NCBI GenBank assembly: GCA_963555985.3
Contig: OY820591.1
Coordinates: 1,728,001-1,792,000, forward strand
Direction of reading: 5' to 3'
DNA length: 64,000 nt
Source of the DNA: Dehalococcoidia bacterium
Lineage (GTDB): Bacteria > Chloroflexota > Dehalococcoidia > Bin125
Every line of letters starts with the position of its first letter. The stretch's first letter is position 1. A program made the position numbers and the translations under genes. The notes beneath the pieces were generated by a model. It had not been told where the DNA came from, searched no databases, and worked only from the letters and a program-made list of their open reading frames with translations. Positions 4,639 to 60,865 of this stretch are shown here, piece by piece.

Positions 4639-5802
4639 TTAGCCTGACGTGAAGGCCGCGATCCGTTCGACGCCTTCGTCGACTTCTTCGTCGGGCAAGG
4701 TCAGGGAGAGGCGGATGTAGCCCTCGCCGGCGGGGCCGTAGCCGTTGCCGGGGGTGACGACGACTCCCTGCTCCTCGATCAGGCGGGCGGCGAAGTCGGC
4801 GGAGGTGTCGCCTTCGGGGATTTTGGCCCAGATGTAGAGGGATGCCTTGGGGTTGGTGACTTCGAGGCCGATGGAGCGGAGGGCGTCGACGACTTTGTCT
4901 CGACGACCCTGGATGATGGCGTTGTTGGCCTCGATCACCGACTGATCGCCGTCGAGGGCGGCGATGGCCATTTGCTGGATTGCCTGGGGGATGCCGGAGT
5001 CGATGTTGGACTTGACGCGGAGGAGCGGATCGACCAGTTCGGCGTTGCCGCAGGCCCAGCCGAGCCGCCAGCCGGTCATGTTGAAGGTCTTGGAGAGGGA
5101 GAAGTACTCCATGCCGGAGGCCATGCCCGAGGGGGCTTGGAGGAAGGCGGGAGCTTCGTAACCGTCGAAGGTGACGTCGCAGTAGGCGTTGTCGTGGAGG
5201 ACGGCGATCTCGTTGTCGAGGCCGAACTGGGCGGCGCGCTCGAAGAAGTCGAGGTCGGCCAGTGCTCCAGTTGGGTTGTTGGGATAGTTGATCCAGAGGA
5301 CGCGGGCGCGTTCGCTCACGTCAGCTGGGATCGCATCCAGGTCGGGGAGGAAGTCGTTGTCTGCGGTCAAGGGCATGTAGTGAGATTCGCCGCCGGCGAA
5401 CATCGTGCCGATTGCGTAGACGGGATAGGCGGGGTCGGGGACAAGAGCGATATCGCCCGGGTCGATGAAGCAGAGGGCGGAGTTGGCGATGCCTTCCTTT
5501 GCCCCGATCAGGGGGACGATCTCGGTGGCCGGATCGAGCGCGACCTCGAAGCGCTGCGCCATCCAGCGGGCGATGCACTCGCGCAATTCGGGCAGGCCCT
5601 CGGTCTCCGGGTAGCGATGGTTGGCGGGCACGTCGGCGTGTTCGTGGAGGGCTTCGAGGATGTGCGGGTGTGTGGGTAGGTCGGGATCGCCGATACCAAA
5701 GGAGATCACGCGCACGCCTTTTTCGCGCTGCTCGGCGATTTTGCGGGAGATTTCGACGAAGAGGTAGGGCGGGAGGGATTGGACACGCTTGGCAGTGCGC
5801 AT
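4639..5802 (-). CDS. dapL: LL-diaminopimelate aminotransferase
   Basis: MRTAKRVQSLPPYLF, NYPNNPTG, DNAY, SLSKTFNMTGWR; located near dapF. Confidence 0.85.
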   Translation of the reverse strand: MRTAKRVQSLPPYLFVEISRKIAEQREKGVRVISFGIGDPDLPTHPHILEALHEHADVPANHRYPETEGLPELRECIARWMAQRFEVALDPATEIVPLIGAKEGIANSALCFIDPGDIALVPDPAYPVYAIGTMFAGGESHYMPLTADNDFLPDLDAIPADVSERARVLWINYPNNPTGALADLDFFERAAQFGLDNEIAVLHDNAYCDVTFDGYEAPAFLQAPSGMASGMEYFSLSKTFNMTGWRLGWACGNAELVDPLLRVKSNIDSGIPQAIQQMAIAALDGDQSVIEANNAIIQGRRDKVVDALRSIGLEVTNPKASLYIWAKIPEGDTSADFAARLIEEQGVVVTPGNGYGPAGEGYIRLSLTLPDEEVDEGVERIAAFTSG

Positions 5803-5867
5803 GGGGAGACCTCTGAACGATTTGCGGCGAGTGGTTGCTCGGTTCGGGAGCATCCCGGTATCTGACG

Positions 5868-5920
5868 GGACCCCCTCTGTCACTTCGTGACATCTCCCCC
5901 CGCAGCGCGGGGGGAGGGAT
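5868..5920. repeat. REP-like double-hairpin repeat, copy 1 (copy 2 at 33879-33936)
   Basis: ACCCCCTCTGTC-N-GACATCTCCCCC-N-GGGGGGAG at both sites. Confidence 0.8.
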
Positions 5921-17071: not shown

Positions 17072-19726
17072 TCATTCGCCGCCCATCGCGGAGTCGTCGT
17101 CGCCTGCGGTAGGTTCTCCGCATCTGCCCGTGTTCGAGTCGATCTTCTTGACGTCGTATTCGACAGCGGCCCATTGCATGAGGCAGTCCTTCATTTCGTG
17201 TTGATCCACTCCAAACTGCCGCTCCAAGGCACCCTCGGTGAACCACCAGGACCACCAGACCAACGTCTGGTGGTCAGCGAACTGACGATAATACGAAAGC
17301 AGCGACCGTTCACCACCCATGTGAACGAGCAATTCGGTCGCAATCGCGCCCAAGTCGTATGCGAAGTTCTCCAGATACTCTTCCAACTGTTCCACATCTG
17401 CGAGATCGCAATCAAATGTCTTCTCTGCCTTACGGCACAGCTTTTTCTTCGCCTCGACCCGGAAGCTGCTCCACCGCTCTGTCTGGAGCCGGGCATAGTC
17501 GACGTACTTTCGATCGAAGTATCGAGCATTTCCTTCGTACAGCCACTCCGGGGCAAGGGAAGCTTTATCGTATCCAGCATCAAAGGCATGCAGAAATCCC
17601 TCGTAGTCCGCCGAGGCCAACTGAAGAAGGTGGAAGTACTCGTGGGCTACGACTCTCTTCGTAACCTCGAGTCCAGGTTCGTTGTACATGTCATAACGAA
17701 ATCGGATGGCTGCGTGACCCGTGCGGGCCTGGGGAGGTGCAAGTGGGTTAACACTGTTTGGAGTACTTCTTGCCGCCCGTCCCGCTGCGTTCTTCTTCTC
17801 CGTCTCCAGGTCCAACACGTCGAAGGGGATCTCGTAGTGGTACTGCTCCATCAGCTGAGCGAAATCTTCAACGAAATACGGACCGACGTACAGGAAAGCG
17901 TCCTCCGACAGAGTTCCGCCGAATCGCGCTTCGGCGAAGTGCTCGATCGGCTTGATCGACGCCGCCAACTCGGCGATGGCATAGTGATCGTCCAGGAGGA
18001 AGTTCGCCTGCGCGCGCGTTTGATCGCCGGGCACGATCGCCAGGGCGTACTTGCCCTCGGCGAGCCGGTTGATGGAAGTGACGTCGATATAGTAGGTCCC
18101 GGGTTTGAGGACGAAGGTCGCGCCGGCGCCATAGGGTCCGAACCGACCGGCCCCGCTATCGCTGTAGTCATCGCCGCGCGACAGGCGGAACTCCACTGGC
18201 AGTTCGCTCGAGATTAAGTCGACTCGAACTTCGCGCTCCCCGTCCACCGTAAACGCGTATCGGTCAACCCGGCGCGACGGCGATGGATTGAGACTGAGGC
18301 AATCGCCCGATTCCAGGTGGCCATGCCCGACCAAACTATGCCGAACGTCCGTGGTGTCGATCGTGCCGAGTTCGATCGAGCCGCAGTCCCCGCCTGTTCC
18401 CGTCCGGCCATCGGAACCAAGTGAGACGCTGAGCTCATAGTTCCCAAGGCCGTCATAAGTTTGAGCGGCGACGATCTGGTAGTCGCCTGGGGCGAGGGAC
18501 TGGGTGATCTGGGAGCGCAACCCAGTTTCATCATCACCCGGAACAATTTCCCGTCCAGACCCATCCAGCAGGCGGACATACTCCGAGAAATCGCCGGAAC
18601 TCATCTTGATCGTCACCTCGGCGCTTTGCTCAAGCTTGAATGAGTAGAGGTCTGCGCGCTGTTCGGAGTCCAGCGGATCGCGGCAGTCGTCCCAGTAAGA
18701 GAGCAAGCCGGAGCGGTACGCGCCGAGCGAGCGCAACGTTCCCAGATCGTGGGCCGCGCAAGCGGCGACGCCGCCCTGCGTCACGCGCAGGCCGGCCGGC
18801 GGACTCGACTGACCATTGTCGTCGTCGCCCCAGCAATGGACCGCGCCTGACGCCGTCAGCCCGCAGGTGTAACCCCAGCCCGCGCTGACCTGCGTGAAAC
18901 GCCCGGCCGGCGGACTCGACTGGCCGGATTCGTCGTCGCCCCAGCACTGGACTGCGCCCGACGCCGTCAGCCCGCAGCTGTGTGTCCCGCCCGCGCTGAC
19001 CTGCGTGAAACGCCCGGCCGGCGGACTCCACTCGGTCGGCGGACTCCACTGGTCAAAGTTCACGTAGCCCCAGCACTGGACTTCCTTCGACGCCGTTAGC
19101 CCGCAGGTGTGCAACGAGCCCGCGCTGACCTGCGTGAAACGCCCGGCCGGCGGACTCGACTGGCCCGCCCAGTCGTCGCCCCAGCACTGGACCGCGCCCG
19201 AGGTCGTCAGCCCGCAGGTGTGCAACGCGCCCGCGCTGACCTGCGTGAAACGCCCGGCCGGCGGACTCGACTGGCCGAATTTGTCGTTGCCCCAGCACTG
19301 GACCGCGCTCGACGCCGTCACCCCGCAGCTGTGAAAAAAGCCTGCGCTGACTTGGGTGAAGCGACCCGCCGGCGGACTCGACTGGCCGTAGTCGTTCCGG
19401 CCCCAGCACTGCGCCGCGCCCGACGCCGTCACGCCGCAGCTGTGATGTACGTCCGCGCTGACCTGCGTGAAGCGCCCGGCCGGCGGACTCGACTGACCTT
19501 CGTCGTCCCCGCCCCAACACTGCACAGCGCCGGACTCCGTCACTACGCAGGTGTGATCCCCGCCCGCGCTGAGGGTTTCGACTAAACTCGATCCGCCCGA
19601 CTGCGCCTCTGCCGACCCGGCCTCAAGCCCCCAAACCGCAGCCGCAGCGACGACCGCGATGACCGCGAGCGCGGCCAGCCGCAGTTGCAATCTGAACCCA
19701 CCGTCTCCCATTTGCCGGAATGTCAT
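17072..19726 (-). CDS. Secreted multidomain protein: signal peptide, 7 RCC1-like repeats, two PPC-like domains, HExxH metallopeptidase-like C-terminus
   Basis: Hydrophobic N-terminus ending AEAQ; repeated VSAGxxHxCGLTASGAVQCWG; DLYSFKL/PGDYQI and PGTYYI modules; AHEYFH...PEWLYEG. Confidence 0.8.
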   Translation of the reverse strand: MTFRQMGDGGFRLQLRLAALAVIAVVAAAAVWGLEAGSAEAQSGGSSLVETLSAGGDHTCVVTESGAVQCWGGDDEGQSSPPAGRFTQVSADVHHSCGVTASGAAQCWGRNDYGQSSPPAGRFTQVSAGFFHSCGVTASSAVQCWGNDKFGQSSPPAGRFTQVSAGALHTCGLTTSGAVQCWGDDWAGQSSPPAGRFTQVSAGSLHTCGLTASKEVQCWGYVNFDQWSPPTEWSPPAGRFTQVSAGGTHSCGLTASGAVQCWGDDESGQSSPPAGRFTQVSAGWGYTCGLTASGAVHCWGDDDNGQSSPPAGLRVTQGGVAACAAHDLGTLRSLGAYRSGLLSYWDDCRDPLDSEQRADLYSFKLEQSAEVTIKMSSGDFSEYVRLLDGSGREIVPGDDETGLRSQITQSLAPGDYQIVAAQTYDGLGNYELSVSLGSDGRTGTGGDCGSIELGTIDTTDVRHSLVGHGHLESGDCLSLNPSPSRRVDRYAFTVDGEREVRVDLISSELPVEFRLSRGDDYSDSGAGRFGPYGAGATFVLKPGTYYIDVTSINRLAEGKYALAIVPGDQTRAQANFLLDDHYAIAELAASIKPIEHFAEARFGGTLSEDAFLYVGPYFVEDFAQLMEQYHYEIPFDVLDLETEKKNAAGRAARSTPNSVNPLAPPQARTGHAAIRFRYDMYNEPGLEVTKRVVAHEYFHLLQLASADYEGFLHAFDAGYDKASLAPEWLYEGNARYFDRKYVDYARLQTERWSSFRVEAKKKLCRKAEKTFDCDLADVEQLEEYLENFAYDLGAIATELLVHMGGERSLLSYYRQFADHQTLVWWSWWFTEGALERQFGVDQHEMKDCLMQWAAVEYDVKKIDSNTGRCGEPTAGDDDSAMGGE
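18790..19578 (-). repeat. Intragenic 111-bp tandem repeats (37-aa RCC1-like units)
   Basis: Near-identical units at 18881, 18992, 19121, 19232 and onward; one unit carries an extra 18 bp (WSPPTE). Confidence 0.9.
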
Positions 19727-25804: not shown

Positions 25805-27159
25805 TGGTCGAGTCGGCGCCGCTCGAGTGAGCGCGCGTGTGCGTCGAGCAGCTCGGCATGGGCGATCAGCTCGGCGTCGGGCGCGATCTGGTCAAGCAGG
25901 TCGTCGGTGACTTGTACGACCGTGGTGATTTTCATGAACTCACCCACGTTGAGGGCGGAGGCGAAGCGCGCAGAGCCTCCGGTCGGCATCACGTGGGAAG
26001 GGCCGGCCACGTAGTCGCCGAGCGCCTCCGGGGAGGCTTCGCCGACGAACAGGCCGCCGGCGTTTCGCACCTGATCGATGCGCTGATGCGCGTCGGCCGT
26101 GACCAGCGCCAGGTGTTCGGGGGCGTATTGGTTTGCGAGCGCGAGCGCATCGTCGAGGTTGGGCACGTAGGCCAGGCCGCCGCGATTGCGGACGGCGTTG
26201 AGGGCGATCTCGCGGCGGGGCAGATCGGCGGCCTGGACGGTGAGTTGGGCGGCGACTCGCTCGGCCAGTTCTGCGCTGGTGCTGATCAGGATCGGGGCGG
26301 CGAAGTTGTCGTGTTCCGCTTGGGCGAGCAGGTCTGCGGCGACCAGCTCGGGATTGGCGGAGTCGTCGGCGATGATCAGCGTTTCGGTGGGTCCGTAGAT
26401 GGCGTCGATCCCGACGACTCCGTAGAGGCGGCGCTTGGCGGCGGTGACGAAGCGGTTGCCGGGGCCGAAGATCTTGTCGACGGGCGGGATTGACTCCGTA
26501 CCGTAGGCCAGCGCGGCGATCGCTTGAGCGCCGCCAATTTTGTAGACCGTGCTCACGCCCGCGATTTCGGCTGCGACCAGCTTGAGCGGATTGACTTGGG
26601 CGCGCCCGTCGGAGCCGGGCGTCGCCGGGCTTGCGATCACGACATCCTCGACTCCGGCGACGCGGGCCGGGATCGCGGTGTGCAGCACGGTTGAGGGATA
26701 TACGGCTGCGGTGCCGGGGACGTACAAGCCAACGCGTGCAAGCGGGCGCACGATTTGGCCGAGACCTTCGTGTGAAAATGATTGCGCGGCGTGTTTGAGT
26801 TGTAATTCGTGGTAGCGGCGCACGCGGTCGGCGGCGTTCTGGAGGGCGGTGAGCAGTTCGGGTGCGACCGTTGCGCGAGCCTCGGCGAATTCCTGCTCCA
26901 TTACTAGCAGATTGTCGGGCGCGGCGCCGTCGATCGCTTCTGCGAGCTCGCGCAGCGCGGTGTCGCCGCCTTCGCGGACTTGCTGGATGATCCGGCGAAC
27001 GGCCTCTTCGAAGCCGGGATCGTCAGCGAAGAGTCTGCGCAAGATGACGCGCTCCGGTTCGGTGAGCGCATCGTCGTCGGGACGGCGGCGCGCCAGGAGT
27101 TGGGCGCGCACCTCGTTCAGGCCGCGCCAGATCGGAATGGGATCGGAGGCGATAGTCAT
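25801..27159 (-). CDS. hisD: Histidinol dehydrogenase
   Basis: GLYVPG, GGAQAIAALAYG, GPGN, QAEH, APEHL, GDYVAGPSHVMPT. Confidence 0.97.
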   Translation of the reverse strand: MTIASDPIPIWRGLNEVRAQLLARRRPDDDALTEPERVILRRLFADDPGFEEAVRRIIQQVREGGDTALRELAEAIDGAAPDNLLVMEQEFAEARATVAPELLTALQNAADRVRRYHELQLKHAAQSFSHEGLGQIVRPLARVGLYVPGTAAVYPSTVLHTAIPARVAGVEDVVIASPATPGSDGRAQVNPLKLVAAEIAGVSTVYKIGGAQAIAALAYGTESIPPVDKIFGPGNRFVTAAKRRLYGVVGIDAIYGPTETLIIADDSANPELVAADLLAQAEHDNFAAPILISTSAELAERVAAQLTVQAADLPRREIALNAVRNRGGLAYVPNLDDALALANQYAPEHLALVTADAHQRIDQVRNAGGLFVGEASPEALGDYVAGPSHVMPTGGSARFASALNVGEFMKITTVVQVTDDLLDQIAPDAELIAHAELLDAHARSLERRRLDQ

Positions 27160-27920
27160 CGGGCGCGGCCCAGGTAGTCGCTCAGGATGTCGGCGGTTCG
27201 TTGCGCGGTGGACTCGAAAAATCCGTCCAGCACATGCTGATCGACGTGACTCAAGGTGTCGTCGAGCAGTTGCGGGATCGTTTCCATGAACTCGCGCAGG
27301 CCGGATTCGCCGGTGATGCCGGCTCCGCGCAAGTGACGGGAGGCGATGAAGCTGAAGCGCTCCCAGTCAGGCGGGTGCTCGGTCATGGCGGCGGTAGTGT
27401 CGCGCCATTGCTCCAGCAAAGAGCGATCGACGAAGCCTGCGTCGATTTCGACGGCGGAGGTGAAGAGGGCGCGGCGAATGCCTTGCATCTCCCCTCCATG
27501 TTCGCGTTCGCGGCGATCGAGCTCGTATTGGAGGATGCGATCGAGGAGGTTGGCGTGGGAGTCGCCGCCCAGGACCGAGCGGTTGCCGAAGAAGGGCCGA
27601 TAGATCTGCATCACGTATTCCTGATCCATGATCAGGTGGGTGAGATAGCCGCAAACCCAGTAGCGGGTCTCGTTGGAGAGGTGCTCCGGATCGCGGAAGC
27701 TGCGATGGGCGGCGAAGAAGTTCTCGACGCAGTCCTGGTGGCCGTCGTCGTAGATGTCGAAGAAGTGGGTACGTTCTCGATCCCAGCGGGTGAGCACGCG
27801 GATATCGGGCGTGGTCGCGCCGAGCAGGAATTCGCCGTTGCGAAGGGTGAGGCCGGCATCGCCAGCGACGCGCTCGCCGGCGCGGCAGGCGGCGATCATG
27901 TGGGAGACCAGGGGCGGCAT
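27156..27920 (-). CDS. Hypothetical protein, Zn-dependent phospholipase C-like
   Basis: MPxxxxH, LGATTPD, THF, GYLTHLIMD metal-ligand pattern. Confidence 0.6.
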   Translation of the reverse strand: MPPLVSHMIAACRAGERVAGDAGLTLRNGEFLLGATTPDIRVLTRWDRERTHFFDIYDDGHQDCVENFFAAHRSFRDPEHLSNETRYWVCGYLTHLIMDQEYVMQIYRPFFGNRSVLGGDSHANLLDRILQYELDRREREHGGEMQGIRRALFTSAVEIDAGFVDRSLLEQWRDTTAAMTEHPPDWERFSFIASRHLRGAGITGESGLREFMETIPQLLDDTLSHVDQHVLDGFFESTAQRTADILSDYLGRAR

Positions 27921-27996
27921 GGAGGCAGATTATCGCGCGAGCGAACGCCGCGCCAATCGCGCTCAGGCTGCAATTTGCCGATCTACACTCGTTGAT

Positions 27997-29313
27997 ATGA
28001 CCCGCTACATCGCGTTGATGCTGATCGCCGCCGGGATAGTGCTGGCTGCCTGTTCGCCCGATCTGCCGCGGGGCGCGGTGCATGTCTCGACTCTGGCCGA
28101 TGACATTGGCCCGGTCTCGGCCAACTTCATCAAGCGGGCTCTGGATCGGGCTGAAGAGGCGGGTGCGGTTGCCTGGATCCTCGAGCTAGACACGCCAGGC
28201 GGGTTGATCTCGTCGACCGACGACATCGTGCAGCGGATTCTGGCGGCTGAGGTTCCGGTGGTGATCTTCGTCAGTCCGGCGGGGGCGCGGGCGGCTTCGG
28301 CGGGGACGTTCATCACGCTGGCGGGCAATATCGCGGCGATGGCTCCGAACACCCAGATTGGGGCGGCGCATCCGGTGGCGGGGGGCGGGGAGGACATTGA
28401 CGGCGACCTGGGCGACAAGGTGACCAACGACGCCGCGGCGGACATTCGCGGGATTGCGGAGCATCGAGGGCGAAACGCGGAATGGGCAGAACAGGCCGTG
28501 CGCGAGTCGGTCTCGATCACCGGCAGTGAAGCGGTTGAGCTTGGCGTCGTTGATCTCGTAGCTGACGACCTGGACGATCTCCTGGAGCAACTCGACGGGA
28601 TGGTGGTGGACGGATTCGGCGCGCTTGCGGTGTCGGGCGCGCCGATGGTGGAGACGGACTACACGTTTGCCGAGAACGTGCTTGACGTGATCGCCGATCC
28701 GAACATCGCCTTCATTCTGATCAACATCGGCGGACTGCTCTTGATCGTGGAGGCGTTCTCGCCGGGGCTGGTCGGTCCGGGCGTCTTCGGCGTGATCATG
28801 CTGATCGTGGGCTTCTTCGCCCTGGGCCCGCTGGACACGAATCCGGCGGGGATTGCGCTGCTGGTGCTGGGCTTGATCTTGCTCGTGGCCGAGGTCTTTG
28901 TGGCCGGCTTCGGCTTTCTCGGCATCGGCGGGATCATTGCGTTGGTGATCGGGGGGCTGATCCTGATTGGGGATGCGTCGGTGGATGCGGAGAAGGTGTC
29001 GGTCTGGGCGTTGATCGTTGGCGCGGGCTTGATCGGAGCGGTGGTGTTGGGGATCGGCATGTTGGTCGGGATTGACCGGCGGCGGCCGAAGTGGCGGCCT
29101 CGGCTCACGAGCCAGGATTCGGACGGGATCGTGGGCAAGGCGGGGGTGGCGCACAACCTGCTCTCGCCGCAGGGCACGGTCGTGGTCGATGCGGAGTTGT
29201 GGTCGGCGCGGGCGGCGGCGGGGGTGGAGATCGCGCAGGGAGCGTCTGTGCGCGTGATTGGGATGGACGGTCTGACGGCGATTGTGGAGGCGGAAGAGAG
29301 CGAGCCTCAGTAG
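27997..29313 (+). CDS. nfeD: NfeD family membrane-bound serine protease (ClpP-like domain, TM helices, OB fold)
   Basis: LDTPGG, AASAG, IGAAHPV, several TM helices, ELWSAR. Confidence 0.9.
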
Positions 29314-29675
29314 GAGTGGATGGCGCGTTTGGCGTTGCGGGGGCGCTGGGGGATGCGTGCGGCGCGGCCGGTGCGTCCGCGGAGGTAGTAGAGGCGGCTG
29401 CGGCGGACGCGGCCGCGGCGGACGACTTCGACTTTGAGCACGCGCGGGGAGTGGTAGAGGAAGGTGCGCTCGACGCCGATGCCCTGGGTGACGCGGCGGA
29501 CGGTGAAGTTGGAGGAGGAGCCCTTCTTCTTGCGCCGGATGACGACGCCTTCGAAGACCTGGGTGCGCTCGCGGTCGCCTTCGACGATGAGAGCATGGAC
29601 GCGCACGGTGTCGCCGGGTTGAAACGGTTGGATTTCCTCGTTGCGTTCAAGGGTGAGCAGGTCGCTGCGGTCCAT
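29307..29675 (-). CDS. rplS: 50S ribosomal protein L19
   Basis: [35 protein letters not shown]. Confidence 0.98.
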
Positions 29676-29811
29676 CGTTCGTTCTCTCGGCGTGTTGGGC
29701 GGGAACTGCCAGTGTACGCGGGGGGTTGGCTTTGGCCTAGCGCCCGATCGGGGTGACCCTCAGGCGGAGCGTGACGCGGGATACATCCACAAGGGGATTG
29801 TTCGGCTTGGG

Positions 29812-29940
29812 GGTGTTCAGGGAGAAATTTATTTTGGCGTGCGGGGATGCTGATCTCCTGTGTTTTCTGGGGTTTTGGCGTTTGGGGTGTTCAGTCTTGT
29901 TCAGGTTTGGGTGTTCGATTGCGTTCGATTGCGTTCGATT
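29812..29940. repeat. Dispersed intergenic element copy 2, followed by a 10-bp tandem repeat (GTTCGATTGC x ~2.8)
   Basis: Collinear with 4340-4440; tandem unit at 29913-29940. Confidence 0.7.
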
Positions 29941-30009
29941 TTGGACGGATTTGTGCGGACTTGGACGGGGGCGTTCGGGTGGTGTTTGGGATGTGCGCGT
30001 GGTGTCACC

Positions 30010-30243
30010 CGTTGCGTCACCGGCCATTTCGGAGGCTCCTCAACGCAAGGAGCGCGGCACCTATTCGATGATCCACGTTGCGTCACCGGCCATTTCGGAG
30101 GCTCCTCAACGGTCCTCTACCCCAACCCGCACGGCTACTACCGTTGCGTCACCGGCCATTTCGGAGGCTCCTCAACGAGCGTTGCGCGTTGCGTATCCGT
30201 TCGCCATCGTTGCGTCACCGGCCATTTCGGAGGCTCCTCAACG
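30010..30243 (-). CRISPR. CRISPR array: 4 identical 36-bp repeats and 3 spacers of 30 bp
   Basis: CGTTGCGTCACCGGCCATTTCGGAGGCTCCTCAACG at 30010-30045, 30076-30111, 30142-30177 and 30208-30243; unique spacers; minus orientation inferred from the adjacent gene and anti-repeat. Confidence 0.95.
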
Positions 30244-31830
30244 AGATAGCAGCCGGAAGCCGGGCAGCGACGCCTGCGTTGAGTGACCTCCTCCATGATG
30301 GGCGAATTCTGGGCGGCTCCCCCGTTCCAGGTGGTTCGGGATCACAGCGGCCGGGGCGGGAACGCAACACCCGCCCTCTGTCAGAGACAGTTGTAAGACG
30401 TTACGCGCCGCGTTCACGTCGGCGTTGGCGGCGTAGCCGCAGGCGGGGCAGTCGAACGTCTCGCCCTGCCGCGCACCCGGCTCGATCGCGCCACACGCTG
30501 AACATGCTCGGGACGTGTAGGGGGCCGGGACCCTGACTAGATGCCCGCCGTGCTTCTCGGCTTTTTCTCCCACGAGCGTCAGGAATTGGCCCCACGTCTG
30601 TTCGCTGATGCTTCGGTTCAGTCCTCGTTTCTGTTTGACGTTCCGCCCCGGCTCCTCCACGGTGCCGGCAGCGCTCTTGGTCATGTTCGGAATCCGCAAG
30701 TCCTCGGCGGCGATGTGGTCGTAACGCCGCACCAGAGCCTGTGCGATGCGGTGATCCTGCTGGCGACGGCGGATGCGGTTCTTGCGCTTGAGCTTGGCGA
30801 GTCGGCGTTTTCGCCGCTCCAGGGTCTTGCTGCCTTTCCGCGACGGCCGGCGGCGGCTGCGCTTCTTGGTCTTGGTTGCGGTCAGCCGCTGCAAGCGCTT
30901 TTCTTCGCTGTCGTCGGGTTCGCGCTTCGGAATCATGATCCCGTCTGAGAGCGCGACGCGAGTGTTGACACCCAGGTCGAGACCGACCATTTTGCCGGCC
31001 TTGGGCAGCGGTTCACGCTCCACCTCACAGACCAGATCGACGTAGAGGCCGTTTGGAGTGAGGTTGAAGCGCACCTCTTTGGGCTTGCAATCGGGCAAGG
31101 TTCCGGGTGACTTCAGCTTGATCCGCAGGTAGTGCTTTCCCTTATGCTGCTGCGCCTTGTGAAACACCACCTCCGCGCGATGCCCGCAGGCCGAGCGCTT
31201 GACATTGCCAGCCTTGATCATCTTGGAGCCGATGCAGCGCCAGCGCTCGCGCTTCTGGTACTTCGGCATCCCGCGAATTCCACTGAGGTGCGCCTGGATG
31301 CTGTTCTGAGCCTTTGCAATCGCCCAGGCCAGCAATCCAAAGTCGAAATCCCGAAGCTCTGGGAACTCGGCGCGCAGAGGCTTGAGGTCGTAGGTCATGG
31401 AGTTGTAGCCGCGGAAGGCCGGCACGCCCGCTTTGGTTCTGCGGTAGTTGTTGGTCTCGGGCAGTTGACGGCGCTCGCGCTCGGCGTCGGTTCGCTCGCC
31501 TACCACCTCCCACCACTTTTGCCCGGTCTCCTCCTCATCTTCCTTCGTCCACCAGGGCGGCTTGTAGACCTTGCGGTAGACCGGCTCGCCGTTTTCGAGG
31601 ACTGGCTTGCCGTTCTTCATTCTCGGCACGATCCAGTACTGTCCCTGCGGGCCGATGCCCTGCTCCCGCATTCGGCGATAGTCGCGGAAGGCGCGGTATT
31701 CCTCGACGACGGCGTTGTAGATGGCGCACTGGACTCCGGCGATGCGGTGGAGCTTGTCGTAGTCGCTGCGGCGGGCGCGGACGGCGCGTCGCTGGAGGGT
31801 TCGGACGAGAGGTTTGGGGGTGTCGGGCAT
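30238..31830 (-). CDS. tnpB: CRISPR-associated TnpB/Cas12f-like RNA-guided RuvC nuclease (~530 aa)
   Basis: RuvC-I GLDLG, RuvC-II AAEDLRIPNM, GLNRSI, zinc finger CSAC...CPAC, RuvC-III NADVNAARN; start at 31830 (GAGG upstream) or 31872. Confidence 0.93.
   Translation of the reverse strand: MPDTPKPLVRTLQRRAVRARRSDYDKLHRIAGVQCAIYNAVVEEYRAFRDYRRMREQGIGPQGQYWIVPRMKNGKPVLENGEPVYRKVYKPPWWTKEDEEETGQKWWEVVGERTDAERERRQLPETNNYRRTKAGVPAFRGYNSMTYDLKPLRAEFPELRDFDFGLLAWAIAKAQNSIQAHLSGIRGMPKYQKRERWRCIGSKMIKAGNVKRSACGHRAEVVFHKAQQHKGKHYLRIKLKSPGTLPDCKPKEVRFNLTPNGLYVDLVCEVEREPLPKAGKMVGLDLGVNTRVALSDGIMIPKREPDDSEEKRLQRLTATKTKKRSRRRPSRKGSKTLERRKRRLAKLKRKNRIRRRQQDHRIAQALVRRYDHIAAEDLRIPNMTKSAAGTVEEPGRNVKQKRGLNRSISEQTWGQFLTLVGEKAEKHGGHLVRVPAPYTSRACSACGAIEPGARQGETFDCPACGYAANADVNAARNVLQLSLTEGGCCVPAPAAVIPNHLERGSRPEFAHHGGGHSTQASLPGFRLLSR
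30277..30395 (-). ncRNA. Putative tracrRNA/omegaRNA scaffold embedded in the 3' end of tnpB
   Basis: Anti-repeat at 30277-30291; hairpin 30354-30376 whose loop is complementary to the repeat 3' end; boundaries approximate. Confidence 0.65.
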
Positions 31831-31968
31831 CTGTTGGTTTGCCTCGTTTGGGGGATACTCATATGTTCGCATAGTTTGGGCTGAATGGCAAATGGGGGGT
31901 GCTGCGAGGTTGCTGGATTTGTCGTTCAGGAGCAGGCGATGATCCGCGCTCTAGTCGACACGCCGCAT

Positions 31969-32124
31969 GGATTCCCGCGTTCGCGGGAATGACGGAAACA
32001 GAAGTTTTGCACAGGTCTCTCTACGCAGGGGCAGGATTTTGCCGCGCTCCGCCGCGACAATCTCGCCGTGTGAGCGACGACGGTGCAGGTCACAGCGAGA
32101 TACCCGCGGCAAGCGCGGGTATGA
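31969..32124. repeat. Cluster of REP-like palindromes (ATTCCCGCG..CGGGAATGAC family)
   Basis: Palindrome at 31971-31990; 32090-32124 is identical (35 bp) to 60825-60859. Confidence 0.8.
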
Positions 32125-32163
32125 TGGAAGTGAGGGGCGGACCCCCTCTATCCCCTGTTCGGG

Positions 32164-33063
32164 CTAGGGGGAGGCGAGCGGGTAAGAGGAGAGCTCGAAT
32201 ACGCGGGCTGGTTGGCAGGGTTCGTAGTTGAGCCAGAGGGATTCTTGGCGGGTGGTGCGGACGGAGTGGGCTAGGCGGGGATTGGCGTCGACTCGGTTCC
32301 AGTTAGCGAAGAGGTCGTCGTAGAGGGTGGAACGGTAGCCGGAGATAGCGGCGCGGCCTTTGATTGTTTGGAGCAGTTCGGCGAGTTCGCGGTGATCGTC
32401 GTCGGTCATTTCTGCGCCGTAGGCGGCAGCGTCGCCGCGGGACTCGTGGACGTAGGGGGGATCGAGGTAGAAGAGCGTGTCGGGGGTGTCGTAGCGCTGA
32501 ATTATTTCGAGGGCGGGGGCGTTCTCGATCTGGATGCGTTGCAGGCGCTGGACGATCTCGGAGAGGCCCTCAACGGAGCCGAGCCAGCGCGAGACGGCGC
32601 CGGCCATTCCGGCGCGGGAGGTGAGCAGGCAATGCGCCCAGCGTCCTTCGGATGATGTCTGAGCCAAGCCGGTGCGGGTCTGGCGGGCGCGGACGAAGAA
32701 GCGGCGGGCGCGTTCGAGCGGGTCGGCACCGTTCGGGGGCTCGCAGGCTAAGGCCAGTTCCTCGCGCGAAAAGGGAGTGAGGCCGATCGCGCGGATGAGG
32801 TCGTCGCTGGTTTCGGGGTCTCGGAGGACGCGGAAGAAGTTGACCAGTTCGGAATCGAGGTCGTTGTAGGTTTCGACGGGGGCGGGGGCGCGGTTGATGA
32901 TCACGGCGGCGGAACCGCCGAAGACGTCGCAGAAGTGGCGCTCGTCGGTGGGCAGGTTGGGGAGGATGAAGTCGAGGTGGCTGAATTTGCCGCCGTACCA
33001 GCCGAAGGCGATCATGCACTTTCGGCGTCGGGCGGCGTTCTTGACAATGCGGCGGGTAACCAT
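32164..33063 (-). CDS. DNA adenine methyltransferase (Dam/D12 class), no cognate endonuclease seen
   Basis: WYGGK, DVFGGS, YNDL, FYLDPPY motifs. Confidence 0.92.
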   Translation of the reverse strand: MVTRRIVKNAARRRKCMIAFGWYGGKFSHLDFILPNLPTDERHFCDVFGGSAAVIINRAPAPVETYNDLDSELVNFFRVLRDPETSDDLIRAIGLTPFSREELALACEPPNGADPLERARRFFVRARQTRTGLAQTSSEGRWAHCLLTSRAGMAGAVSRWLGSVEGLSEIVQRLQRIQIENAPALEIIQRYDTPDTLFYLDPPYVHESRGDAAAYGAEMTDDDHRELAELLQTIKGRAAISGYRSTLYDDLFANWNRVDANPRLAHSVRTTRQESLWLNYEPCQPARVFELSSYPLASP

Positions 33064-33166
33064 CGGCGGCCTCCTGGGACTCCGTGCATACGTTCGCATG
33101 AATTGTCCGGTTTGGCAAGTGGGTTGGGTGGTCTGTACATAGTGGATGGAGGTGTGCAGAGGATGT

Positions 33167-33859
33167 CTAGTTTGTGTCGCCTTCGCCGGGTAGGAGATCG
33201 GGGCGTCTGGCGCGGGTGCGGCGGCGTTGTTGCTGCCGACGCCAGTGTTCGATTTGGGCGTGGTGTCCGCTGAGGAGGATGTCGGGGACTCGCCAGCCGC
33301 GAAACTCCGGCGGTCTGGTGTATTGGGGGTATTCCAGCAGGCCGTCGGAGAAGGATTCGTCGAGGGCGGACTCGGCCGAGCCGAGCGCTCCGGGTTGGAG
33401 GCGGACAACGGCGTCGACGACTACGGCGGCAGCCGGCTCTCCACCTGAGAGCACGTAATCGCCAATCGAGATTTCAGCGTCGGCGAGGTGTTCGCGGACT
33501 CGCTCGTCGATGCCCTCGTAGCGGGCGCAGAGGAGGATGAGGCGATCTTCGCTGGCGAGTTCGCGCACGATTGCCTGGTCCAGCCGGCGTCCCTGGGGGG
33601 TAAGGAGGACGGCGCGGCCGGGATTGCCTTGCGTCCGCAGCGATTCGACGGCTCGGAACCAGGGTTCGGGGCGCATGACCATGCCCGCGCCGCCGCCGTA
33701 GGGCGGCGCGTCTACGCTTCGGTGTCTGTCGGTGGTGTAGTCGCGTAGATCGTGCAGGCGGAGATCGAGGATTCCGGCTGAGCGGGCGCGCCGGATGATG
33801 CTCGCCTCGAAGGCGCCGGCGAGCAGTTGCGGAAAGATCGTGAGGATGTCGATCCGCAT
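33167..33859 (-). CDS. trmD: tRNA (guanine37-N1)-methyltransferase
   Basis: [37 protein letters not shown]. Confidence 0.98.
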
Positions 33860-33878
33860 GTTGCGTGTGTATTCGGTC

Positions 33879-33936
33879 GGACCCCCCTCTGTCCCTCCGG
33901 GACATCTCCCCCCACAGTGCGGGGGGAGAGGGGATT
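33879..33936. repeat. REP-like double-hairpin repeat, copy 2
   Basis: Matches 5868-5920, with compensating stem changes (GTCAC/GTGAC vs GTCCC/GGGAC). Confidence 0.8.
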
Positions 33937-33969
33937 GGGTTTGGACTGCTCTCCCGTTGCGGGGAAGGG

Positions 33970-35205
<1,236 letters not shown>

Positions 35206-60522: not shown

Positions 60523-60865
60523 ACTCCGTCATTCCCGCGCTCCGTCGCGGGAATCTCGCCGAGTCCTGCACCGCCGTCTCACTCGGAAGCAATCCCCTGC
60601 ACTGAATCGCTCAGCTGCATCTGGCTGCTGTGCCGCTCACAGAGACCGATGCATAGCCCTTGTTCCGTCATTCCCGCGAAAGGAGGCCTTTGCAAAACGG
60701 CCATTTCCGTCATTCCAGGCTTGACCTGGAATCTCGTTCGGAGTTCGGTCTATCTGGTCGGGCGAGATTCCAGCTTTCGCTGGAATGACGAGCTCAGCCG
60801 ATCGCGGGGTTATGCATCGGTCCCTCACAGCGAGATACCCGCGGCAAGCGCGGGTATGACGGAGT
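60523..60865. repeat. Compound REP-like element containing a nested MITE-like insert
   Basis: Outer inverted repeat ACTCCGTCATTCCCGCGC / GCGCGGGTATGACGGAGT; several internal GTCATTCC palindromes. Confidence 0.75.
60642..60824. mobile_element. MITE-like element with 18-bp imperfect TIRs and TCACA direct repeats
   Basis: GAGACCGATGCATAGCCC ... GGGTTATGCATCGGTCCC (16/18 match), flanked by TCACA at 60637-60641 and 60825-60829. Confidence 0.65.

Follow-up and report, generated by a model that had tools for sequence, protein, structure and literature searches.

The subject of this report is a nuclease gene and the CRISPR mini-array that adjoins it in the genome of a Dehalococcoidia bacterium (assembly GCA_963555985.3, contig OY820591.1, positions 1,728,001 to 1,792,000 of the forward strand), a stretch of 64,000 nucleotides (nt) that was analysed as a whole and is referred to here as the window. 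The gene is located on the minus strand at 30238..31830 and encodes a Cas12-like nuclease of the TnpB superfamily, 530 amino acids (aa) plus a stop codon, as established from its open reading frame (ORF) and from NCBIfam and Pfam models. The minus-strand ORF can be extended to 30238-31872, which gives 544 aa from the first ATG (31872); the form in the protein library starts at the ATG at 31830 and has 530 aa, and this form (P0002) is the window protein of the following text. The array, at 30010..30243, consists of four identical 36-nt repeats and three spacers. The TGA stop codon of the nuclease gene (30238-30240) is part of the adjoining repeat (30208-30243), so that gene and array overlap by 6 nt. 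The preliminary description of this DNA had the array following at once after the gene, which understated how closely the two are joined.

The array was identified by an exact search of the 64-kb window, in which the 36-nt repeat is present four times with 0 mismatches, starting at 30010, 30076, 30142 and 30208 (30010-30045, 30076-30111, 30142-30177 and 30208-30243). No such repeat is expected by chance, and 0 of 100 shuffles gave any match. The repeat period of 66 nt results in three 30-nt spacers, at 30046-30075, 30112-30141 and 30178-30207, which confirms the four identical 36-bp repeats with three 30-bp spacers reported before. No further CRISPR arrays were found in the 64-kb window. The strand of the array was taken as minus because the nuclease gene, the surrounding genes trmD and rplS and a DNA methyltransferase gene are all on the minus strand. 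The minus strand would then be the transcribed strand of the array, which would be co-transcribed with the nuclease gene. A promoter scan of 29200-32400 revealed no sigma-70-like promoter.

The spacers had been described as unrelated sequences. This holds for spacers 1 and 2, which do not resemble the repeat (P=0.77), but not for spacer 3 (30178-30207), in which 16 of 18 positions match the repeat's first 18 bases when a 3-nt insertion is included. A likeness of this degree has a probability of about 0.018 per spacer when compared with random 30-mers of the window, and the heptamer CGTTGCG occurs twice within spacer 3. The likeness could be due to chance, or it could be the remnant of a repeat duplication.

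The window protein belongs to the TnpB superfamily by its split RuvC D-E-D triad, its CxxC...CxxC zinc ribbon and its matches to curated family models. The NCBIfam model guided_TnpB (NF040570) is matched at 177 bits, with a cut-off of 100, and the Pfam models PF01385 (OrfB_IS605) and PF07282 (Cas12f1-like_TNB) are matched at 51 bits (cut-off 30.5) and 73 bits (cut-off 26.3), respectively. The catalytic motifs read in the protein are VGLDLGV (D285), AAEDL (E376) and ADVNAA (D471), and the codons of the triad, located from the sequence and alignments, are found on the minus strand at 30976-30978, 30703-30705 and 30418-30420 (span 30418..30978). The zinc ribbon, CSAC...CPAC (C443/C446/C461/C464), is located between E376 and D471. 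In an alignment of 12 sequences, the three catalytic residues and the four cysteines of the zinc ribbon are invariant. A larger alignment of 112 sequences shows no variation at E376, C443 and C461, and conservation of at least 90% at D285, D471, C446 and C464. The TnpB-type protein of about 530 aa with all named catalytic residues and the CxxC/CxxC pair, as first described, is therefore present, with these residues conserved in the alignments. Judged by its sequence, the protein is most likely a TnpB-derived RuvC nuclease with its catalytic residues intact. The GC content of the gene (0.64) is close to that of the window (0.65).

In the N-terminal half, in the REC/WED region, the alignment places a lineage-specific insertion of about 85 aa (approximately residues 57-140, encoded by 31411..31662 on the minus strand). 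This insertion is common to the window protein and P0003, its full-length relative, and is absent from all relatives of about 400 aa. An AlphaFold2 model based on 112 sequences has a mean predicted local distance difference test score (pLDDT) of 81.7 and a predicted template modelling score (pTM) of 0.74, and is confident save for residues 111-127 and 487-530; across the insertion stretch, the pLDDT ranges from 44 to 80. The last 44 residues (487-530, pLDDT below 50) are predicted to be disordered, and this predicted C-terminal tail, approximately residues 486-530, is encoded by 30241..30375 on the minus strand.

Two described Cas12 subtypes were considered and rejected using NCBIfam models. 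The model of type V-U2 (C2c8; V_cas_c2c8) is matched at 125.7 bits, below its cut-off of 350, and over the C-terminal part only, and the model of Cas12f2 (type V-F; CRISPR_Cas12f2) is matched at 70.2 bits, below its cut-off of 450. The PADLOC profiles Cas12u4 (V-U4), Cas12f and Cas12u2 match the window protein over its C-terminal half only. In a control with the Cas12u4 profile, the window protein scored 158 bits, P0003 155 bits and six TnpB-like relatives of about 400 aa 184-244 bits, and the PADLOC scores of 19 longer relatives were also the same as or higher than those of the window protein. As plain TnpB-like relatives score the same or higher, these profiles mark the TnpB clade and not a subtype. 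Subtyping by PADLOC was therefore rejected, as the profiles, V-U4 included, fail to separate the window protein from plain TnpBs.

A Foldseek comparison with the PDB placed ISFba1 TnpB first (TM 0.77 on target), followed by AsCas12f, Cas12p, ISDra2 TnpB and Fanzor2. The best sequence relative with a solved structure is 9J09, which gave E=2e-24 in the single-sequence search and E=5e-28 when the family profile was used; the match covers the RuvC half only. Look-alikes in the ESM Atlas were generic TnpB clusters only. The locus was not classed with the transposon-borne TnpBs, as it is present as one copy in the window and has an array that replaces the single guide.

Relatives of the protein were searched for in 5.8 billion clusters with a word-indexed search and in 1.84 billion representatives with an exhaustive HMMER search. 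Besides the protein itself, the first search yielded a single full-length relative, P0003 (530 aa, 71% identity by BLASTP), followed by TnpB-like proteins of about 400 aa with at most 41% identity, and the HMMER search added one 217-aa fragment, P0122 (72% identity). P0003 is intact over its 530 aa. The lineage is very rare: about 15 billion proteins include three sequences that belong to it. Among the 1.84 billion representatives, residues 1-127 were matched by the query alone, because the short relatives do not have the insertion of about 85 aa. In a FastTree tree of 171 sequences, the window protein and P0003 form a pair with a stem of 0.9 substitutions per site and are not part of a well-supported wider clade. 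A candidate sister in this tree, P0183 (518 aa, weak support of 85), was rejected as it is of a different lineage, its extra length being another insertion located inside RuvC.

At least 80 related loci with proteins of 29-49% identity were fetched, mostly from metagenome-assembled genomes (MAGs) of Dehalococcoidia and other Chloroflexota, together with one Rhodobacterales MAG and many actinomycetes; the genome that contains the window is not represented in this set. A tblastn search with residues 1-145 against 80 loci gave 0 matches for the insertion region. The same 80 loci were scanned for arrays as exact 14-mers occurring at least three times at a spacing of 45-110 nt, a scan that degenerate or two-repeat arrays can escape. 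Two of the 80 were flagged. L002 was rejected as a coding tandem repeat, and at L005 the array is genuine but lies within a TnpB-like gene that is disrupted. Whether homologues also have arrays had been proposed as a check, and the outcome is that none of the 80 related loci listed has an array adjacent to an intact gene within the flanks covered (some loci are short). The array seen at the window locus would therefore go with the derived, insertion-bearing lineage.

The array at L005 (L005:5100-6714, from the Dehalococcoidia MAG contig OZ253670.1) is located at 5264-5886 and has 11 repeats of about 28 nt with a period of 60 nt. The N-terminal part of the TnpB-like gene stops near 5230, with its reading frame taken up again at about 5900. 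No cas genes were found by Pfam among the 15 ORFs of this 12.7-kb locus, and a DDE_3 transposase is present upstream of the array. The L005 array may have formed ectopically or may be an orphan.

Other relatives are part of multi-copy elements. A TnpB-only element of 1.43 kb is present in the Rhodobacterales MAG OZ244777.1 in at least three nearly full copies that are 96-98% identical (L006:5732-7164, L009 and L017). That genome also contains two shorter variants, and a Paracoccaceae MAG has one copy (L007). All copies end at the same right-end sequence. As this relative is multi-copy, the nearest kin of the nuclease behave as mobile TnpB elements. The nuclease is most likely descended from a TnpB lineage that is common in Chloroflexota and Actinomycetota.

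At the window locus, signs of mobility or of an adaptation module were looked for with Pfam. Among 115 ORF translations (all 63 ORFs of at least 50 aa in 27000-35000 and selected ORFs of at least 150 aa elsewhere, so that a small distant gene could escape), no Cas1, Cas2, Cas4, Y1 transposase or resolvase was found, which upholds the reported absence of tnpA, cas1, cas2 and cas4. In addition, P0003 and P0392, a homologue of the neighbouring methyltransferase with 91% identity, each come from one contig of 12,327 bp, and the two genes are probably neighbours in a related organism. The shared contig size therefore suggests that the nuclease gene is at the same chromosomal place in this relative, unlike a mobile TnpB. 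If the two genes are neighbours there, the nuclease (71%) would have diverged much faster than the methyltransferase (91%); the best RecA homologue, from another contig, is also 91% identical. The named relatives of this RecA are Chloroflexota/Dehalococcoidia MAGs, so that an uncultured bacterium of that phylum is the probable host. Searches yielded no nuclease homologue from other organisms whose methyltransferase is 86-90% identical, and the distribution of the nuclease gene is patchy.

A guide-scaffold RNA encoded at the 3' end of the ORF was searched for with duplex tests on a tail segment of 147 nt, from 30390 to 30244 (ten codons past D471 to the array), with 1000 dinucleotide shuffles as control. 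These tests point to a putative scaffold resembling a trans-activating CRISPR RNA (tracrRNA) or the omega-RNA of transposons, on the minus strand, that would span the tail (30241..30375) and 30376-30390. Candidate anti-repeat A (30349..30369, minus strand) forms a duplex with the repeat's last 16 nt in sense orientation at -23.5 kcal/mol (P=0.01), and candidate anti-repeat B (30276..30292, minus strand) pairs with the first 16 nt, also in sense orientation, at -23.3 kcal/mol (P=0.014). The segment of anti-repeat B was also flagged by inverted-repeat detection (I1), and the minimum-free-energy fold of the tail with the first repeat forms both duplexes. Candidate A encodes GGCC.PA and candidate B encodes GG..TQ, residues that are conserved in the tails of P0003 and P0122. 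Between these two relatives, the tail is identical at 43 of 44 positions and the core at 149 of 174 (Fisher p=0.034), a pattern that would be expected of an overlapping functional RNA. A further candidate anti-repeat, at 32537-32577 inside the methyltransferase gene, forms the strongest duplex in the window (-46 kcal/mol) and was dropped, as unrelated sites reach -45.4 and -43.7 kcal/mol.

The position of the array was compared with that of a transposon guide. In the multi-copy 1.43-kb relative, the right end of the element is about 185 nt past the catalytic Asp codon, and at the window locus the first repeat occupies nt 177-213 past this codon. The first repeat is thus located where an omega-RNA would meet its guide, and this geometry fits an omega-RNA origin.

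The features of the locus can be compared with four known groups of nucleases, of which Cas12n (type V-N, formerly V-U4/c2c9) is one. In the published account, Cas12n effectors are described as monomeric, tracrRNA-dependent proteins of 400-800 aa, with a mean of 544 aa (485 aa without the tail). They are reported to have an unstructured, dispensable tail past the last catalytic Asp, a tracrRNA inside the 3' end of the ORF, and an array directly behind the effector gene, with the adaptation module absent. The anti-repeat is described as pairing with the last 16 nt of the repeat, and the effector as cleaving double-stranded DNA as a monomer at a 5'-AAN protospacer-adjacent motif (PAM). The solved relative 9J09 is given as RdCas12n, a type V-N effector. 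The window protein resembles this group in size (530 aa, compared with the mean of 544 aa and with 540 aa for RdCas12n), in being an effector of 400-800 aa beside an array, and in the absence of adaptation genes near the locus. It also matches RdCas12n in sequence over residues 291-493, with a common insertion, GT.E.PG.NV..K.GLNR, in the RuvC domain. The array directly behind the gene is a further likeness, and by prediction the likeness would extend to the unstructured tail past D471 and to the candidate anti-repeats in the ORF tail. As far as sequence comparison can tell, the locus appears to have the Cas12n architecture throughout, but the N-terminal half of its protein resembles no Cas12n that was compared.

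The second group, TranC, is described in a 2026 preprint as transposon-CRISPR intermediates comprising at least 24 clades with independent TnpB origins and short arrays. Like TranC, the window locus has a TnpB-derived nuclease (about 300-600 aa in TranC) and a short array, and is without cas1, cas2 and cas4. TranC clade 20, whose proteins average 513 aa and whose arrays have 3-12 repeats of 36 or 38 nt according to the preprint, is similar in dimensions to the 530 aa, 36-nt repeat and four repeats found here, a comparison that was made by published description only. The 'RNA splitting' origin put forward for TranC, in which CRISPR RNA (crRNA) and tracrRNA are derived from the right-end RNA, fits the geometry at the window locus. 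Unlike the TranC clades, none of which is given a Cas12n-like unstructured tail in the preprint, the window protein has such a tail by prediction. LaTranC (PDB 9JFO/9JFQ) is a weak match (E=1.5e-7, C-terminal part only).

The third group consists of the transposon-borne TnpBs such as ISDra2 and ISFba1 TnpB, with which the protein shares the fold and catalytic core (Foldseek TM 0.70-0.78 on target) and the guided_TnpB model above its cut-off. Transposon-borne TnpB genes have a 3' end that is overlapped by the guide-scaffold RNA, and the candidate scaffold at the window locus would be placed likewise. Unlike these systems, the locus has an array and not one guide, and no tnpA nearby, recognizable ends or second copy in the window. 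The protein differs from ISDra2 and ISFba1 TnpB in its additional N-terminal insertion of about 85 aa, and its gene in a chromosomal position that is probably fixed. The fourth group, Cas12f, is similar in its miniature size, its TnpB-like core and its tracrRNA dependence (putative at the window locus), and AsCas12f is among the best structural matches. The Cas12f2 model, however, reaches only 70 bits with a cut-off of 450, and in the literature Cas12f is described as a homodimer and without an unstructured, tracrRNA-bearing tail.

The preliminary description proposed a candidate new system, which was overstated, as this build has already been published for Cas12n and for at least 24 TranC clades. 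Its reading of the locus as a TnpB-to-Cas12 transition stands in part: a TnpB-derived nuclease coupled to its own mini-array is most likely, and its nearest relatives have no array, but the layout is not new. The kind of system is already known, and what is new is the lineage, which is very rare and has an insertion of its own.

With moderate confidence, the locus is read as a working miniature type V system of a Cas12n-like or TranC-like kind, consisting of the nuclease, which is of monomer size, a scaffold RNA derived from the tail region and crRNAs from the array. This reading builds on the array and its overlap with the gene, the catalytic residues, the family assignment, the rarity and insertion of the lineage, the predicted disordered tail, and the absence of cas1, cas2, cas4 and tnpA nearby. 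A TnpB ancestor would have gained the insertion of about 85 aa in its N-terminal recognition lobe, and the four-repeat array would stand in place of the single guide of the transposon omega-RNA. Gene and array would be transcribed together from the minus strand, and the tail-encoded RNA (approximately 30244-30390) would act as a tracrRNA-like scaffold, one segment of which would pair with the 3' half of the repeat and another with the 5' half. The resulting complex would carry the spacer at the 3' end of the repeat and would cleave matching double-stranded DNA beside a PAM, using the single RuvC site. On this reading, the window locus would have a tracrRNA, cleave DNA and play a role in defence. 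New spacers, if any are acquired, would need adaptation genes elsewhere in the genome.

Several results weigh against this reading, and the first of these are related to the RNA. When the whole repeat is compared with the tail, the duplex has P=0.07, and the halving of the repeat was a choice made after seeing the data. The fold of the tail with the repeat is no stabler than that of shuffles on either strand (z=-0.79 and -0.60), and chance duplexes with the repeat elsewhere in the GC-rich window reach -45 kcal/mol. Between the window protein and P0003, the tail is identical at 22 of 45 positions and the core at 133 of 174. In the fetched loci with at least 250 nt past the catalytic Asp codon, nucleotide homology of the tail was limited to chance matches of 10-12 nt, which also speaks against an RNA role. 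The array itself has three spacers only, one of which is repeat-like. A blastn search with the whole array found no spacer targets in 50,697 phage or 72,556 plasmid records, with best E-values of 0.8 for phages and 0.2 for plasmids and matches that were short and straddled repeats. Within the window, with up to 9 mismatches allowed, the spacers matched only themselves; an inverted match of 17 of 21 between spacer 2 and rplS is at chance level and was rejected as a target. The likeness to RdCas12n is also partial, as its N-terminal half has no detectable sequence similarity to that of the window protein, and 9J09 is outside the 50 best structural matches.

Some of these results are shared with a different explanation, considered unlikely here, in which a domesticated TnpB acquired a proto-array at the 3' end of its omega-RNA, either through tandem duplication or through ectopic integration. 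Such an array would be static, with spacers that are not derived from invaders, and would serve a host function, such as regulation or the exclusion of a specific element, from a fixed site. Four identical repeats with only three spacers, a spacer 3 that repeats the 5' half of the repeat (P ~0.018), and the failure to find spacer targets in phages, plasmids or the window, or adaptation genes nearby, are consistent with this explanation. So are the location of the locus between trmD/methyltransferase and rplS, probably at the same place in a relative, and the first repeat being where a TnpB guide would begin. The L005 array, inside a related TnpB-like gene without nearby cas genes, shows that arrays can arise there. 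However, regular 30-nt spacers of unrelated sequence are the outcome of acquisition, and spacers 1 and 2 are unlike the repeat. Missing matches are usual for uncultured hosts, and the published TranC and Cas12n arrays are equally short (median 4.5-5 repeats) and likewise without adaptation genes.

A similarly doubtful evolutionary claim is that this small lineage represents a TnpB-to-CRISPR transition which is independent, very young and caught at an early stage. A domesticated TnpB, fixed between the conserved methyltransferase gene and rplS, would have had its right-end guide RNA multiplied into a proto-array of four units, and the system may function without adaptation machinery, possibly with a host-chosen target rather than a role in defence. 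As part of the same claim, the first unit would still be covalently continuous with the scaffold, and one 'spacer' would retain repeat sequence.

It is likewise improbable that the adjacency of gene and array is due to chance or is secondary. The nuclease would then be an ordinary, possibly domesticated TnpB with a conventional omega-RNA, and the array would be an orphan or would be served by another CRISPR-Cas system of the genome. The Cas12 profiles do match the C-terminal half only, with ordinary TnpB-like relatives scoring higher on the PADLOC V-U4 profile (184-244 compared with 158 bits), no thermodynamic signal for a structured RNA was found in the fold of the tail and repeat, and L005 indicates that orphan arrays occur next to TnpB-like genes. 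These points are opposed by the stop codon inside the repeat, with zero gap between gene and array, and by the candidate pairing of the repeat with two conserved tail segments, with the array at the guide position. The lineage-specific insertion in the recognition lobe and the long stem of 0.9 substitutions per site are expected after a change of function, and no other arrays or cas genes were found in the 64 kb. Least likely of all, the locus is a decaying relic of a once working miniature type V system or of a transposon copy, now inactive, which would agree with the tiny array without known targets, the very rare lineage and the patchy presence among organisms that share the methyltransferase at 86-91% identity, but not with a full-length ORF that has kept all catalytic and zinc-binding residues, a relative (P0003) that is also intact or four repeats that are identical.

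The reading of the locus as a working miniature system bears on two topics. One is genome editing, for which miniature nucleases (about 500 aa) guided by RNA are in demand since they fit delivery vectors; the window protein would have about 486 aa without its tail, and it is a candidate for a PAM screen. The other is the origin of CRISPR arrays from transposon guide RNAs, a question on which TnpB-proximal systems bear and to which the locus adds a data point with an insertion in the recognition lobe, an overlap of gene and array, a candidate two-part anti-repeat in the ORF and probably the same site in a related organism. It does not represent a new principle, as its architecture and evolutionary story are already known from Cas12n and the TranC clades.

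The locus is embedded in a stretch of housekeeping genes, and those named here are all on the minus strand, in the transcription order dcw cluster (PBP to ftsZ), trmD, methyltransferase gene, nuclease gene, array, 334 nt of non-coding DNA and rplS. According to the ORF and Pfam scan, trmD is located at 33167-33859, the methyltransferase gene at 32164-33099 and rplS at 29307-29675. The genes trmD and rplS are usually adjacent in the rpsP-rimM-trmD-rplS operon. At the window locus they are about 3.5 kb apart, separated by the methyltransferase gene, the nuclease gene, the array and the 334-nt stretch. This stretch (29676..30009), between the array and the start of rplS, is A/C-rich on the minus strand and has a GC content of 0.58, compared with 0.65 for the window, and the ORFs within it have no Pfam matches.

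The methyltransferase is of the Dam family of N6-adenine DNA methyltransferases, with an intact DPPY motif. It is an orphan enzyme, extremely conserved and widespread, and no restriction partner was seen nearby. It was rejected as part of the nuclease system, as it has 7997 homologues (E<=1e-10), the best of which are 72-91% identical and many of which are on Mb-sized contigs, and as it is absent from the 80 related loci. Its gene resembles part of the core genome of this bacterial group more than island cargo.

The nuclease and methyltransferase genes are preceded by similar sequences on the minus strand. The element upstream of the nuclease gene (31860..31901) resembles 33087-33130 upstream of the methyltransferase gene, with 34 of 44 aligned columns matching, or 36 of 44 when two transitions are included. 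Its 13-mer core is found only at these two sites in the window, with 0.04 expected. The element (42-44 nt) ends in ATGCGAACRTATG, with which both ORFs can start as MRTY, and may be a promoter or operator common to the two genes, or else a junction that was duplicated.

Identical GC-rich palindromes, CCCGCGGCAAGCGCGGG, are present at 32103-32119 and 60838-60854, and a hairpin similar to them is part of the intergenic DNA that precedes the nuclease gene (31961-31990). These palindromes may be REP-like or terminator-like elements. Further away, a minus-strand gene at 17072-19726 encodes a large protein that has both RCC1 repeats and a PPC domain, and the 111-nt tandem repeats at 18792-19572 in this gene are coding and unrelated to the nuclease locus.

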